This document shows positions 3,842 to 36,307 of a stretch of 64,000 bases of DNA, one piece after another. The stretch's first letter is position 1; every line of letters starts with the position of its first letter. The position numbers and the translations under genes are program-made. Origin of the DNA: Pseudomonas phage vB_PaePAO1-KEN19. The notes under the pieces are model-generated. The model was given only the letters and a program-made list of their open reading frames with translations. It was not told where the DNA came from and did no database searches. The DNA is taken from the sequence record PP456878.1, one strand, 5' to 3'.

Positions 3842-5356
3842 ATGTTTGAGTTATTGTTGTCTTCTGGACTAACAAATACGCCTATATATTCCGATCCTTA
3901 TCCAGGTCCTAAAACACTGATAGCTGGGACAAGGGAATTAGGTTTGTATGGTGAAACAACATCTTCAGAATTATTTGGTTATGATGATGCAGCTAAATTA
4001 GTTAATATGACATTTGGAACAGTAATCAATGATGGACAACCATGGTTAAAGTTCTCTAATAAAAATGTTACTTGTTACATACCAAAGAAACCAGCTCGTA
4101 AATCAATACAAAAATCACGGCTTAATAATGCCGGACTCCGTAATGGTGACTATGAAGTTAGATTTATGGGGAACATTTATAAATTTGGTTTATTAACAAT
4201 GGCTGGTGCCACATCAGAATGGCAAAGGTTACTTTATAATGTTCACGTATCTAATTTAAATGGTGCTAACTGGCCTTATAAATTTACAGATAATGACTTA
4301 GGTATTAACCAAGCGGTCGCTGGTGGTATTAGCACTGATGGTACTACTAACTGGGGAAGAGACCCAGGTAGTGATCCAGTTAATGACCAGCTCTATCGTG
4401 GCTACTATGCGATTGATATAACTAGCTCGTCAAGTAGTGAAACGGGTGCTGCAACCCAAGGTTGGCGTCCAGTGGTTTATGCTAGTGGTACATATCCATT
4501 CGTTAAAGATAATGTTATTAAACTTACTGATTTTGAAACTGATAACGAAATGGCAGCAGGTGCCCAAATAGGTAACTTAGTCTATTATTACGGTGGTAAG
4601 AATAATGCTAATACTGCTCTACGTACACTGAATTTAGTCACGGGTAAGTTAACAACATTACAACCAACTGGTACGCCTATAGCAGTTAAACAATGCTCGG
4701 CTGTTGCATTTAATGGTAAAGTATATTTCTATGGTGGTGAAAGTGCCACAGATGGTGTACTTACTAAAGATATGCAGTGTTATGATCCTGCAACTAATAC
4801 ATGGGAAATAAAATCACCAGGCACGATAGCTTGCCGGTATGCACGTGGAACTAGTCTTAATGGGTTAATCTACATATTAGGTGCAGCTGATACAACTGCG
4901 ACAAATAATCGTGGATTTACATTAATGTACAATCCAACTACAGATACATATACCAGTGGTGCAGCATTTAATGATACTGGGGAATATACCCAAGATTATT
5001 CAGTGAGTATTTATAATAATAGCGTATGCGTTATTGGTGGTACGGTTGGTGCTGGTGTTAATACTGGAATCATATCGTACAATCAAACCAACAATAATTG
5101 GTCCAAACCAATAACTACAGGTATACCTCTTGGTGCAGCTATTAATATACGCCCATCTGGTGAACTTTATGTAATCGCTGGTGAAAATCAAAATAACGCA
5201 CCAATTAAGTATTATGAACCACGATTAGCACGATGGATAAATTTAGGTAATTTAGAAACTGGTTTAGTGGATGCAGGTTTTGCCAATACGTTTAATAATG
5301 ACGGTAAGATTTATGTTCTAAACGGTAATCAGAATTTAAAATACCAAATTAGTTAA
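3842..5356 (+). CDS. Kelch-type beta-propeller repeat protein (possible receptor-binding / tail fibre protein)
   Basis: Six periodic blades with hydrophobic strands followed by GG or AG, for example VYYYGG, VYFYGGE and LIYILGA. RBS aaaagagg precedes the ATG. It is an isolated plus-strand gene ended by a hairpin plus U-run. Confidence 0.5.
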   Translation: MFELLLSSGLTNTPIYSDPYPGPKTLIAGTRELGLYGETTSSELFGYDDAAKLVNMTFGTVINDGQPWLKFSNKNVTCYIPKKPARKSIQKSRLNNAGLRNGDYEVRFMGNIYKFGLLTMAGATSEWQRLLYNVHVSNLNGANWPYKFTDNDLGINQAVAGGISTDGTTNWGRDPGSDPVNDQLYRGYYAIDITSSSSSETGAATQGWRPVVYASGTYPFVKDNVIKLTDFETDNEMAAGAQIGNLVYYYGGKNNANTALRTLNLVTGKLTTLQPTGTPIAVKQCSAVAFNGKVYFYGGESATDGVLTKDMQCYDPATNTWEIKSPGTIACRYARGTSLNGLIYILGAADTTATNNRGFTLMYNPTTDTYTSGAAFNDTGEYTQDYSVSIYNNSVCVIGGTVGAGVNTGIISYNQTNNNWSKPITTGIPLGAAINIRPSGELYVIAGENQNNAPIKYYEPRLARWINLGNLETGLVDAGFANTFNNDGKIYVLNGNQNLKYQIS

Positions 5357-5362
5357 CGAAAT

Positions 5363-5390
5363 AAACCCTCCCGTAATGGGAGGGTTTTAT
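5363..5390 (+). terminator. intrinsic terminator (hairpin plus U-run)
   Basis: aaaccctcccgtaatgggagggtttt followed by T residues, immediately after the stop at 5356. Confidence 0.6.
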
Positions 5391-5459
5391 GATGTGTCGA
5401 AGTTTATGTTAGCAGTAATGATCAATTGATAATATTTAATTAGGAATACCTTCCATTTT

Positions 5460-20137: not shown

Positions 20138-20441
20138 CGTTATGTTCAGGTAAGTTCGCTACGCTTACCCCGCCTCTCGTATTGCAGGCAGCTGCATGTC
20201 ACCATGCAGACCAGACTATATCTTAACCTTCACCCTAGGTGGTCAGGTCCCTCCCATTTCCACTCGCTTGAGTGTACTCCGCGTAACCGGATAGTCGTTG
20301 AACGTTCAATCCATTTCTGGAAAGCTTCGCTGCTGATTGTCTCATTGAGATGTCCCAGCAATTAGAGAGGATTTACTTGACTCTTTCGAGATCAAGCAGG
20401 CAATTTGACAATATCCATTCCTGAGAGATGGATGGATATTA
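20138..20441 (-). mobile_element. group I intron (about 304 nt, no ORF) in the RNAP beta gene
   Basis: Read on the minus strand: P aattgctggga, Q aatcagcagc, R gttcaacgactatc (plus strand 20290-20303), S aagatatagtctgg (plus strand 20211-20224). P9 hairpin ctgcatg-GTGA-catgcag. The 3' end is ...ctgaacataacG. The intron begins TAA immediately after the exon AAT. Confidence 0.8.
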
Positions 20442-32834: not shown

Positions 32835-33260
32835 TCAGTTATTGGCCGTATATGACCAGCATAGATTAAACGGATGTTGCATAGGTAAATTAAATGTGTC
32901 TAGTTCCTGACCGCACCAATTGACAGCTTTTGTAACACCTTCAACAGTTACAGTTAATTCAACATAGATATCATGTTCAGGTGCAGTCACCACAATAGTG
33001 ATTGGATCATCATGTTTAATACGGAATCCAAACTTAGGATGATGGAATCCAGTATATTCACCTTTAGTATTTTCTAGAATACATTCAAATAGATTAGTTT
33101 CTTTATTAAGTTCAAATGTAACCAGTTTATCAGAATCTTTAAGTAAATCATTATCCCCAAATACATTGAACCGATAATGCTTATGGCAGACACCAAGTGT
33201 TTTTGGCATATCGTGGGAATTATCGATTTGCTTAGTGCATTCATTACATTTACTATTCAT
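32835..33260 (-). CDS. hypothetical protein with N-terminal Cys/His zinc-ribbon-like motif
   Basis: CNECTK...CHKHY. Confidence 0.45.
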   Translation of the reverse strand: MNSKCNECTKQIDNSHDMPKTLGVCHKHYRFNVFGDNDLLKDSDKLVTFELNKETNLFECILENTKGEYTGFHHPKFGFRIKHDDPITIVVTAPEHDIYVELTVTVEGVTKAVNWCGQELDTFNLPMQHPFNLCWSYTANN

Positions 33261-33272
33261 CCTTATTTACCT

Positions 33273-33656
33273 TTAATAAATTTGCTTATCAAAAGAGCAA
33301 TTAACTGGGATAGTGATAACTTCATTAGTAACTACATGTTTGCCTGTCTTTTTAAAGAATTGGGCAAATTTTGAAGTAACTGGAATTACAAACGTATCAT
33401 CCCGATCATTATTTGACATATTGTACAGAGTAAATTTACCGTCTAAATCAAACCTAATTTGCCATTCAATATCACGTACTTTGAAATCTATACCGAATCT
33501 TAAGTGGTCATCAATTAATTCAGAACCACCGTATACATACGCCCCAGTGAAATTCCAATTAATTTCTGCGAATTGGAAAGTTACAGGATGTTCGCCATAT
33601 TCATCTTGTATGTAGTAACCATCATGAGCTTTCCAATAGATAACTAAATCATGCAT
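33273..33656 (-). CDS. hypothetical protein (127 aa)
   Basis: Minus-strand ORF followed by the hairpin at 33679-33700. Confidence 0.45.
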   Translation of the reverse strand: MHDLVIYWKAHDGYYIQDEYGEHPVTFQFAEINWNFTGAYVYGGSELIDDHLRFGIDFKVRDIEWQIRFDLDGKFTLYNMSNNDRDDTFVIPVTSKFAQFFKKTGKHVVTNEVITIPVNCSFDKQIY

Positions 33657-33715: not shown

Positions 33716-33904
33716 TTAATCATTAAGCTTAGAGATCATTTCGACATATGCATCGACAAACCTTCTGTTTACCACTACATCACCATTCCCGCAAGTAATA
33801 TATCTCTTAGTGAATACGGCTACCGATCTGGCTTCACGTTCATCTCATTCGACTTGTGATAAACATTCCGGGTTACGTCGAATAATTTCACGAATATTAG
33901 ACAT
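33716..33904 (-). other. small gene (63 codons) with an in-frame UGA at codon 20
   Basis: RBS aagggg 8 nt before the ATG. The promoter-like motif lies 30 nt upstream and a hairpin lies downstream. Translation: MSNIREIIRRNPECLSQVE-UGA-DEREARSVAVFTKRYITCGNGDVVVNRRFVDAYVEMISKLND-UAA. Confidence 0.3.
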
Positions 33905-33936
33905 TGGGTATTCCCCTTATCACTATTGCATCTTAG

Positions 33937-33958
33937 TGATATAAATCTGAAATTAAAT
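33937..33958 (-). promoter_or_regulatory. conserved promoter-like motif, minus-strand sense ATTTAATTTCAGATTTATATCAC
   Basis: Family member directly upstream of the small UGA-containing gene. Confidence 0.4.
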
Positions 33959-34010
33959 CCAGTGGAACTTTACATCCATGGTTAGTCGCCGCCATAACAG
34001 GAAATAAAGC

Positions 34011-34045: not shown

Positions 34046-34264
34046 TTACGACTTCAACCATTCTTCTAATGGCGGTAAATACTTCTCATGCGCCCAGTTA
34101 ATAATTGTTTCTACAACAGGACCCTGTAATTCAAGGTTACCTGAGATTTCATGTGGTTCATCAATAGATAGAACCCATGTATGTGGAGCAATGCGTTCAG
34201 TTGCTTTGGTTAAATACACATCAGGCATTAACGTTAAATTCAATTGATCGCCGTCAAAATCCGC
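34046..34264 (-). CDS. non-virion RNAP beta-prime N-terminal piece, exon 3
   Basis: Begins GCG GAT TTT GAC GGC GAT CAA, encoding ADFDGDQ. This is the universal Mg-binding NADFDGD motif. The Asn codon is supplied by exon 2. Confidence 0.75.
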   Translation of the reverse strand, partial: ADFDGDQLNLTLMPDVYLTKATERIAPHTWVLSIDEPHEISGNLELQGPVVETIINWAHEKYLPPLEEWLKS

Positions 34265-34757
34265 CGTTATGTTCAGTATGGGTCGTTAATCCATACCCGG
34301 TAGTATAATTACCACATGATAATTACCACCTGCTGCATGTCACCATGCAGACCAGACTATATCTTCACCCTTCCTTTCGGAGTGGGGTGTCTCCCATTTC
34401 GAGTCACTTGACCCTACATCCTATTTCTAGGACCGGTGCACCTGATACCGTAATAGTCGTTGAACCTTCTCCTATTCCTAAATGGAATGTTACGGAGCTT
34501 GGCTGCTGATTGGCCCTACCTAATCTTTTTCAAACCTTGGCTTTGTCTTTCGACTCGCAGTGGTAGATTAGTTTAACAGGATATCCCAGCAATTAGAGAG
34601 AACTCACCCCAATGATTACTCACTGGGGGAACTAGACTTGATTAACTTAATAAGGTATTTATCAAGCACTTCATATTCAATTTTAAATGAAGCCGGATCA
34701 AAGACGGACACTACTCCGTTTTGTTCCATTGTTTTTACCTTATTTAGTTAGTTGTCC
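34265..34757 (-). mobile_element. group I intron (about 493 nt) splitting the NADFDGD codons
   Basis: Same P, Q, R, S core and P9 (ctgcatggtgacatgcag) as the other two introns. The 3' end is ...ctgaacataacG. It has an extra ~190 nt in the 5' part carrying a 37-codon ORF. The P5 region is enlarged. Confidence 0.7.
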
Positions 34758-34865
34758 ATTAGGCGCTTTAAGGCATAATACTGACATGCTGATTGAATTA
34801 TCATTAATGTCATCTTTTACTTTAGTAATAAAGAATTGTTGAGTAGATCCACGTTGAAGGGTCGG
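34758..34865 (-). CDS. non-virion RNAP beta-prime N-terminal piece, exon 2 (36 codons)
   Basis: PTLQRGSTQQFFITKVKDDINDNSISMSVLCLKAPN aligns with E. coli [33 protein letters not shown], which directly precedes ADFDGD. Confidence 0.7.
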
Positions 34866-35170
34866 CGTTGTGTTCAGATAAGTTCGTTAAGCTTATCCCG
34901 TCTATTAATAATAGACAGCTGCATGTCGCCATGCAGACCAGACTATATCTTCACCTTTGGCATTACCCAGTAAGGTGCTCCCCATTTCGAGTCACTTGAC
35001 TCTACTCTACTCGGTTCACTTTCGTGCCTTTCGATAGTCGTTGAACGTTCAATCCATTTCTGGAAAGCTTCGCTGCTGATTGTCTCATTGAGATGTCCCA
35101 GCAATTAAAGGAGTTTTGTCGAGTAATATTTCTATTACAAGGAAACCATTTAGTATTAATATACAAATTA
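34866..35170 (-). mobile_element. group I intron (about 305 nt, no ORF), near-identical core to the beta-gene intron
   Basis: aattgctgggacatctcaatgagacaatcagcagcgaagctttccagaaatggattgaacgttcaacgactatc is shared almost verbatim with 20138-20441. It ends ctgaacacaacG and starts TAA after the exon AAT. Confidence 0.75.
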
Positions 35171-36307
35171 ATTTCGGTGAAAAGTGCAACCCATTCCTTT
35201 ATATGGTGCGGCCTCTGCAATTAACTCTTTAAATAGATCAGCGATGATTTGGTTATATTGAAGTACATTCTCATATACAAATGAGAATGCTTCACGAGTT
35301 GTCATGTTAAACTTAGCTTTTAACTTGTTAGTTAGATGATACTTTAATAATTGACAACCTACCCCCCAAGGGATATGTAGTTCATCATAATCATGCGGGT
35401 CACTAATAGAAGTGATTACTGCACGTGCCGTAGCGTTGAGACGAGCACCAAACATGTGACGCCGAGCAAGACCAGGCTTTTGAGCAATTCGTGATTTTGC
35501 GTAGATCTCGTAGAACTGGCCATATAGTCTTAGTCCTCGCATAGTCCTATTCTGAGCTTTAATTGGACTAAGTGGTACAGATGATGCATCAATACTAGCG
35601 AAGGTTAAGGTAGCATCAATTGCTGCTTCAATTGGTTTATCTAAGTAAGTACCAGATGTGGTTGATTCTGCTACGAAACAGAGTTTAGAAGGAACTGGTA
35701 AATATTTAGGGAATAACTTATCTTTATTCTGAGCAACGAATTGAGCGAATTCGGATTTATTATTAGAGATAATATTTGCATCTAGTAGGAATTGGAAGAT
35801 CTCATTGAAATTATCAATGAAGTGATTTAATCCTCTTTCAAATCCTCGATGCAGTAGCCTATCTACTTTCCTGCGTGTTTCCTTAGAACCAATAGATTCT
35901 ACATCGTATCGATAAGAAGTATCAGTTAGATATGCTAAGAAATCGAATTCTTTAGTTACTAGATATCCGGTTAGCATAATGATTAAACGTGGGTTAATTA
36001 GGCTACGTACATGTTTTGGTGTACGAACCCACATTGATGGTTCGATAGGGCGGCTAGAAGTATTGACAACTGGAGTATTACAAATATCACAGATTACTCC
36101 GAGTTTATGTGCGTCTTCGATTGCTCGACAATCACAGCTTACACTACTTTCAATTGCTTCTGAATCTTGGAAATGAGAATAGAAATGTCTATCAAATTCT
36201 TCTTTCTCATCTGAGTTACTCGTATTGTAATCATTGGCATAAATTCGTTTACCCGTAAATTGATCATGAACTTCATTATGATCAACAACTTTGGCATAAA
36301 GACCCAT
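35171..36307 (-). CDS. non-virion RNAP beta-prime N-terminal piece, exon 1
   Basis: Zinc-binding CDCRAIEDAHKLGVICDICNTP. RRHMFGARLNATARAVITSISDP resembles beta-prime GKRVDYSGRSVITVGP. It ends ...FHRN. The probable start is ATG MGLYAK with caggag SD (36307), not the listed TTG at 36334. Confidence 0.75.

Follow-up and report, generated by a model that had tools for sequence, protein, structure and literature searches.

Two td-like group I introns without endonuclease genes in the non-virion RNA polymerase β′-N gene of a phiKZ-like Pseudomonas phage

Results

A polymerase gene in three exons

The gene for the N-terminal β′-like subunit of the non-virion RNA polymerase (nvRNAP β′-N) of Pseudomonas phage vB_PaePAO1-KEN19 is interrupted by two td-like group I introns, and we consider it highly probable that both are removed by self-splicing. 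The gene lies on the minus strand of a stretch of 64,000 nucleotides (nt) of the phage DNA (PP456878.1), analyzed here at full length and referred to as the window. Over the 2.5 kb around the twin introns, the window is 99.4% identical to phage PA_ZH1 and 96 to 99% identical to approximately 40 other Phikzvirus genomes, and by this measure its source is a Phikzvirus, a phiKZ-like giant phage of Pseudomonas. Because the matching region of phiKZ is annotated as gp54 (nuclear shell protein), PHIKZ055 ("RNA polymerase beta subunit"), PHIKZ056 (HNH endonuclease), and PHIKZ056.1, the interrupted gene is the homolog of gp55, which is the N-terminal β′-like subunit of the nvRNAP (PMC4666361; PMC8287921). 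The parts of the gene, in the direction of transcription, are:

35171–36307, minus strand: exon 1 of the nvRNAP β′-N gene, 379 codons, ending in FHRN; 98.8% identity to PHIKZ055
34866–35170, minus strand: intron 1 (site 1), a td-like group I intron of 305 nt without an open reading frame (ORF), with an in-frame UAA at its start
35142–35146, minus strand: internal guide sequence of intron 1, GUUUC, which pairs with exon GAAAU, with a U·G wobble at the splice site
34758–34865, minus strand: exon 2, a micro-exon of 108 nt (36 codons) encoding PTLQRGS...LCLKAPN
34265–34757, minus strand: intron 2 (site 2), a group I intron of 493 nt between the Asn codon and ADFDGD; homolog of the phiKZ gp56 intron
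34046–34264, minus strand: exon 3 (phiKZ PHIKZ056.1), ADFDGDQLNL...EEWLKS and the stop codon
34011–34034, minus strand: terminator-like hairpin directly 3′ of the exon 3 stop codon

A preliminary description of this DNA, made from its letters alone, had proposed this three-exon structure. Rereading of the minus strand returned the same coordinates for all three exons, including the 36-codon micro-exon, and translation gave the same exon ends: FHRN closing exon 1, PTLQRGS...LCLKAPN for exon 2, and ADFDGDQ opening exon 3. The resemblance to NRAPTLHR...AAYNADFDGDQ of the Escherichia coli β′ subunit was recovered by BLASTP. The reading frame from 36307 stops at a TAA beginning at 35170, right after FHRN, and in the unspliced RNA an in-frame stop is met zero codons into intron 1 and five codons into intron 2. 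When the three exons are joined they form an ORF of 1464 nt, encoding a protein of 487 amino acids and 55.6 kDa. Residues 1 to 486 of this protein are identical to chain A of PDB 7OGP, deposited as a "PHIKZ055 ... PHIKZ056.1" fusion; the identity includes the whole exon 1 product (residues 1–379). Native phiKZ gp55 is a 56 kDa protein by mass spectrometry (PMC4666361), and the cryo-EM structure places 417-DFDGD-421 within gp55 (PMC8287921). Both observations fit the spliced 55.6-kDa protein and do not fit the annotated ORF of 420 amino acids. Exon 2 possesses neither a start codon of its own nor a ribosome-binding site, and all exon differences from isolate to isolate are synonymous. The tryptic peptides that span the junctions in the spliced protein would be NPTLQR (junction 1) and APNADFDGDQLNLTLMPDVYLTK (junction 2).

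For Western blots of cells infected with phiKZ it has been stated, without an explanation in the paper, that "Gp55 migrates as two bands" (PMC10612078, Figure 1 legend). One possibility is that a truncated 420-amino acid product of unspliced mRNA is present alongside the spliced 487-amino acid protein.

Alleles without introns locate both insertions. The DNA of phiKZ, T2P, and Wadjak-1 is contiguous across 35171|34865, where intron 1 is exactly absent, so intron 1 is a clean presence/absence polymorphism with the boundaries listed above, and the flanking bases leave no sliding ambiguity. At site 2, the uninterrupted DNA of PhiPA3 and phiLBG22 reads CCTAAT|GCGGAT, which fixes the boundaries of intron 2 and agrees with the earlier proposal that this intron separates the Asn codon from ADFDGD. 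A one-base (G) sliding ambiguity at this boundary is settled by the group I rule that U occupies position −1 and that the intron closes with G. In PhiPA3, 201phi2-1, and Psa21 the full protein is encoded without interruption, and neither site has an intron. The comparison with intron-less homologs that had been suggested as a check therefore found alleles without an intron for each site and no homolog in which either insertion is present as coding sequence.

The introns are intact members of the group I family

An Rfam scan of the whole window at the gathering threshold (50) returned exactly three matches, all to RF00028 (model positions 1–253), all on the minus strand, and all full-model and not truncated: intron 1 at 34919–35168 (86.3 bits, E 1.3e-20), intron 2 at 34333–34653 (78.2 bits, E 3.6e-18), and a third intron, in the nvRNAP β gene, at 20192–20420 (84.2 bits). 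Full-model matches at these scores are far beyond chance, so the covariance-model search proposed for the two β′-N introns came out in favor of both.

The cores of seven introns were aligned: the three window introns, phiKZ intron 2, intron 1 of GUMS and of ANB1, and the phiLBG22 intron. RNAalifold recovered P3, P4, P5, P6, a P7.x hairpin, P8, P9, and two 3′ stems from this alignment, and P7 was added as a pseudoknot with P3. Pairing was found in 94.6% of cells, compared with 35 to 42% in controls in which the partners were slid by 1 to 3 columns, and 30 of the 56 pairs showed double compensatory changes, compared with 4 to 9 in the slid controls; none of 500 shuffles reached the observed values for pairing and compensation. 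The compensatory double changes fall in P3, P5, P6, P8, and P9, while P4 and P7 are invariant and fully paired. Covariation of this kind indicates that selection still acts on the intron folds. Compared with the Rfam consensus, 33 to 55 additional nt separate the 5′ strand of P7 from the 3′ strand of P3, and one extra P7–P3 hairpin (alignment columns 224–239) is backed by covariation. The 3′ half of intron 1 is approximately 76% identical to T4-type td introns. By the extra P7.1/P7.2 hairpins and the similarity to td, the introns are classified as td-like, subgroup IA-type.

Intron 1 possesses a canonical P1, in which the U at the last exon position faces the G of the guide, and like intron 2 it ends in G. 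Its guide, retained as GGUUUCC by the GUMS and ANB1 variants, is followed by the P2 hairpin GUAAUA-GAAA-UAUUAC.

The β-gene intron and its corrected 5′ boundary

The third intron offers a comparison within the same genome:

20138–20444, minus strand: third intron, nvRNAP β gene (phiKZ gp71/gp73), ORF-less, 307 nt, starting AAUUAAU; corrected boundaries

The three introns were described at the outset as sharing core elements and the 3′ end CTGAACA(C/T)AACG. Both statements hold in an alignment of the three, in which intron 1 and the β intron have a 77-nt identical run. An AAU Asn codon immediately before the 5′ splice site is a feature of both β′-N introns and not of the β intron, where the AAU is intronic: KEN49, phiHQ, and Phabio, which lack the intron, have the sequence GGxGGx|AAGGG, and both their products and PDB 7OGP_C run DFHGG|KGVICK, with no Asn. 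A 5′ splice site after the AAU of the β intron was rejected because no guide places a U·G there and because the Asn is missing from both 7OGP_C and the intron-less alleles. The corrected start lies 3 nt before the after-AAU reading. At this position P1 is formed by GGU|AAUU paired with the guide AAUUGCC, with a canonical U·G, and the terminal G is present. The phiKZ β intron, which carries gp72, is accordingly 1218 nt with the corrected start and 1215 nt when counted after AAU. An equivalent 3-nt shift was rejected for intron 2, since it would remove the Asn of NADFDGD and this Asn is present in the intron-less alleles.

At approximately 35045–35085 (intron positions ~86–125), window intron 1 has approximately 11 clustered P4–P6 differences from the GUMS intron 1 core. 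At each of these positions it matches the window's own β intron, which produces the identical run. The pattern resembles a tract of gene conversion, approximately 60 nt long, between introns that are approximately 14.5 kb apart in one genome.

Candidate guide sequences of intron 2

The 5′ half of intron 2 contains a remnant ORF and two candidate exon-binding sequences:

34616–34729, minus strand: 37-amino acid remnant ORF, left where 297 codons of the gp56 HNH homing endonuclease gene were deleted in frame
34737–34744 paired with 34649–34656, minus strand: P1a stem of 8 base pairs (bp), enclosing the ORF remnant, 2 nt before candidate guide (a)
34643–34646, minus strand: candidate guide (a), GUUA, invariant; pairs with exon UAAU, with U·G
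34607–34628, minus strand: P2-like hairpin, CCCCAGUGA-GUAA-UCAUUGGGG
34608–34613, minus strand: candidate guide (b), AUUGGG, in the 3′ strand of the P2-like hairpin; pairs with exon CCUAAU

The layout of candidate guide (a) resembles the architecture of the β intron, and its possible role as the guide rests on that resemblance. Window position 34613 (intron 2 position 145), in the 3′ strand of the P2-like hairpin, is an A/G polymorphism: phiKZ and fMGyn-Pae01 have G, giving a U·G with exon CCUAAU, and the window and five other isolates have A, giving a U-A. The hairpin stays paired across the variants. The P10 pairing is only 1 to 2 bp in all three introns and does not discriminate between the candidates. 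The stop codon of the 37-amino acid remnant ORF falls in the GUAA loop of the P2-like hairpin.

Loss of the endonuclease genes

At site 2, phiKZ contains a 1372-nt intron with gp56, a protein of 334 amino acids with NUMOD4, HNH_3, and NUMOD1 domains. The N-terminal ~19 residues of the 37-amino acid remnant correspond to gp56 residues 1–19 and its C-terminal 17 residues to gp56 residues 318–334. T2P, Wadjak-1, PA_ZH1, and GUMS share the 297-codon gp56 deletion of the window. No Pfam domain is left in the remnant and no ORF was found in intron 1. The remnant is labeled "HNH homing endonuclease" in PA_ZH1, T2P, and GUMS.

GUMS and ANB1 have the same site 1 intron as the window but with an ORF for a NUMOD4/HNH_3 protein of 273 to 277 amino acids: an HNH_3 protein of 277 residues, QGK90068, in GUMS and a NUMOD4/HNH_3 protein of 273 residues in ANB1 and fMGyn-Pae01. 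The identity of the GUMS protein is 73% with that of ANB1, 35% with gp56, and 29% with gp72. Window intron 1 corresponds to a GUMS intron in which a 12-nt mini-hairpin has taken the place of the ORF and of the stem that encloses it. In all three introns the location of the ORF is the loop of an extended P1. Since both endonuclease genes are deleted in the window genome, its introns can no longer home by themselves. The insertions had been presented as the classic target choice of homing introns; they are indeed of a mobile-intron kind, but as ORF-less introns they are targets or relics and not autonomous homing elements.

Distribution of the introns

A junction-specific search identified the window-type intron 1 in nine records of the phage collection. 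An ANB1-type intron occupies site 1 in at least five more (KTN4, fnug, OMKO1, ANB1, and fMGyn-Pae01), of which KTN4, fnug, and OMKO1 were assigned to this lineage indirectly, as they have neither a contiguous exon 1/exon 2 junction nor a window-type junction. In total, at least 14 Phikzvirus records have an intron at site 1, and at least 24 have none there. PA_ZH1, AttikonH10, Bobae, PhiPizzaParty, and kmuB align with the whole 2.5 kb without a break and therefore have the same ORF-less twin arrangement as the window.

The introns of ANB1 (1531–2774 of the compared stretch) and fMGyn-Pae01 (1531–2780) represent a second, divergent site 1 lineage. Its core is 84 to 91% identical to the window type, in patches, and has a P5 extension and the 3′ end CTGAAGATATTG; its HNH ORF travels with a phiKZ-like synonymous exon 2 haplotype. 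Taken as a whole, the synonymous exon haplotypes form a mosaic that follows intron type, a pattern to be expected of co-conversion.

Outside Phikzvirus, nearly all of 80 loci scanned in IMG/VR are uninterrupted at these sites, and an Rfam scan of 19 IMG/VR loci with truncated matches found no intron. The only genome outside Phikzvirus with an intron in the gene is phiLBG22, at a third site after DFDGD. The intron of this PhiPA3-like phage (vB_PaeM_phiLBG22, OU343167) is an ORF-less group I intron of 362 nt (1561–1922 of the compared stretch; Rfam 75.7 bits) that follows ...NADFDGD and precedes QLNLTL, 18 nt downstream of site 2 of the window. It has a canonical P1 (GGAGAU paired with GUCUCC) and no P2, and the record is without annotation. 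We had considered phiLBG22 as an allele occupied at site 2, and the position of its intron shows this to be wrong.

Neighboring sequence and record annotation

In GenBank records the pieces of the gene are labeled as separate "hypothetical proteins". In the twin-intron records examined (PA_ZH1, GUMS, ANB1, and fMGyn-Pae01), the polymerase subunit gene is annotated in separate pieces, mostly as unrelated "hypothetical proteins". Just 3′ of the terminator of the gene, window positions 33900–33973 match phiKZ sequence beyond gp58 (5356–5429 of the compared stretch), and the homologs of gp57 and gp58 (33273–33656 and 32835–33260) come after this stretch. Compared with phiKZ, 33900–33973 represents a local rearrangement or repeat of small extent.

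Discussion

A model for expression of the gene

We propose that a single pre-mRNA, from 36307 down to 34046, contains all three exons. Each intron would fold its P3–P9 core and, according to the chemistry of the family, bind guanosine; cleavage would take place after the U of the AAU codon held in P1 by the internal guide, and the exons would be ligated after the terminal G of the intron. Removal of both introns would restore the NRxPTLxR segment and the Mg-binding NADFDGD motif. From the phiKZ protein and the conserved ribozymes we infer that splicing takes place in vivo in the phage of the window. Both introns descend from mobile introns with an I-HmuI-like HNH gene in the loop of an extended P1. 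By occupying their sites they would destroy the target sites of endonucleases that are still encoded by relatives, which may confer immunity. The mechanism would be the ordinary one by which group I introns splice themselves out, here in two mobile-intron relics that are endonuclease-less.

Several observations weigh against this model. The sequence in PDB 7OGP is that of a recombinant construct and hence is no independent proof of the junction formed in vivo. An ONT-cappable-seq study of phiKZ reported that, under its conditions, splicing was not evident at gp56, gp72, or gp179 (PMC10914365). The exon-binding guide of intron 2 is uncertain: candidate guide (a) offers the canonical U·G but only 4 bp, and candidate guide (b) offers 6 to 7 bp but in the window places a U-A at the cleavage site, which is unusual for a group I intron. 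We weighed the transcriptome result against the phiKZ protein-level data, which contradict an absence of splicing.

The doubt about the guide leads to the alternative that survives best, in which both introns splice but intron 2 does so poorly or conditionally, using guide (b) with its U-A, so that the polymerase is throttled or exon 2 is skipped. The 7-bp complementarity between exon CCUAAUG and CAUUGGG, the U·G that G145 provides in phiKZ and fMGyn-Pae01 and that A145 removes in the window and five isolates, and the phiLBG22 intron, whose guide lies directly before P3 with no P2, all speak for this alternative, and the phiLBG22 layout also for guide (b) itself; the two Gp55 bands in phiKZ infections (PMC10612078) would also be accommodated, and exon skipping is documented in the three-intron gene of phage Twort (Landthaler & Shub 1999). 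However, most of the viable isolates carry A145 and the hairpin remains base-paired from variant to variant, both in favor of guide (a), and the invariant GUUA with its U·G adjoins the P1a stem in the layout of the β intron. Complementarity of 6 to 7 bp within approximately 150 nt may also arise by chance. We regard poor or conditional splicing of intron 2 as unlikely.

That the introns are dead relics that do not splice, leaving the gene split into polypeptides of 379, 36, and 72 amino acids or a pseudogene, is highly improbable. The loss of the endonuclease ORFs from both introns, the lack of observed splicing in the phiKZ long-read transcriptome (PMC10914365), the annotation of the GenBank pieces as separate "hypothetical proteins", and the U-A rather than U·G given by guide (b) of intron 2 would each agree with it. 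Yet the ribozyme cores are intact and rich in compensatory changes, exon 2 could not be translated from a start codon or ribosome-binding site of its own, and strict purifying selection has left only synonymous differences in the exons. If the protein were divided between N and ADFDGD, the catalytic loop of an essential enzyme would be disrupted. In addition, phiKZ has a 56-kDa protein that contains DFDGD, and the identical twin arrangement is found in at least six independent viable isolates. Inteins or another protein-level element removed after translation can be set aside: inteins also target polymerase catalytic motifs, and a related jumbo phage is reported to have an intein-like insertion carrying an HNH gene (PMC6892783), but the in-frame stops at, or five codons past, each 5′ boundary leave no ORF through either insertion, and both insertions score as group I introns with E 1e-18 or better.

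Relation to known introns

Splicing by two group I introns remains the reading that we favor, and its components have precedents to different degrees. Introns associated with gp56, gp72, and gp179 of phiKZ were predicted in 2002 (Mesyanzhinov) and revisited in 2014 (Ceyssens), according to PMC10914365 and PMC11512511. The site 2 intron is the already known phiKZ gp55/gp56 intron: in phiKZ the gene is interrupted at the same place (AAT|GCx GAT, N to ADFDGD), the two ribozymes share 98.7% identity across intron positions 89–409, and neither the exons nor the mature protein differ. The phiKZ intron departs from the window intron in encoding the full 334-amino acid endonuclease (1372 nt, compared with 493 nt and a 37-amino acid ORF) and in P9 and the adjoining stem, which are replaced by fully compensatory changes; in addition, site 1 of phiKZ is empty. 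The literature searched yielded no account of the site 1 intron, the twin arrangement with its 36-codon exon, or the third site of phiLBG22, and the site 1 intron is apparently undescribed.

It is established that group I introns with HNH genes occur in jumbo-phage polymerase genes at catalytic motifs (PMC11620839). The PhiPA3 gp210 intron lies in the virion RNA polymerase β gene (Birkholz et al. 2024, PMC11620839), and the gp210 protein nicks DNA and acts in phage–phage competition (PMC11620839). Like the twin introns, the phiKZ gp71/gp72/gp73 and PhiPA3 gp210 introns are td-like group I introns at a catalytic motif of a multisubunit jumbo-phage RNA polymerase; they differ in gene and site and have kept the HNH genes that are gone from the window. 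Twort has three introns in orf142 and two in nrdE (Landthaler & Shub 1999, 2002). In that phage too several related group I introns lie close together with short internal exons; the host, gene, and intron lineage are different, and exon skipping has been demonstrated for Twort.

The T4 td intron and other IA2 phage introns resemble the introns described here in the identity of the 3′ half noted above, in their UAAU start, in the two extra hairpins between P7 and P3, and in residing in a gene of nucleic-acid metabolism. The td ORF (I-TevI, of the GIY-YIG family) is looped out of P6a, whereas the HNH ORFs of the present family are located in the loop of the extended P1.

Implications

Three insertion sites are found within approximately 130 nt of the gene: before PTLQR, between N and ADFDGD, and, in phiLBG22, after DFDGD. 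All stages of the homing cycle coexist in nature among the compared genomes. A tentative interpretation, which we consider possible but doubtful, is that the polymerase active-site region is a battleground of intron-borne HNH endonucleases when Phikzviruses co-infect, in which the ORF-less twins persist through site-occupancy immunity and gene conversion from the β intron keeps intron 1 functional. If true, it would represent a defensive parallel to the "weaponised intron" that has been demonstrated with PhiPA3 gp210.

What is new is a second polymorphic insertion site in a well-studied gene, together with corrected gene models and a corrected boundary for the β intron; the established understanding of how such introns work is unchanged. 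For annotation, the three-exon model restores a protein identical to that of the phiKZ polymerase structures, and a site 1 intron is also assigned to KTN4 and to the therapy candidate OMKO1. The isolates form a series that constitutes a natural system for the study of homing, co-conversion, and endonuclease decay: site 1 is empty or holds an intron with or without its ORF, and the endonuclease gene at site 2 is full, partial, or a remnant. The same series is suited to the study of endonuclease-mediated interference between nucleus-forming phages. According to published work, transcription in these phages takes place inside the phage nucleus and is uncoupled from translation, and efficient splicing of twin introns in an essential early gene would therefore bear on how group I introns fold without ribosomes.

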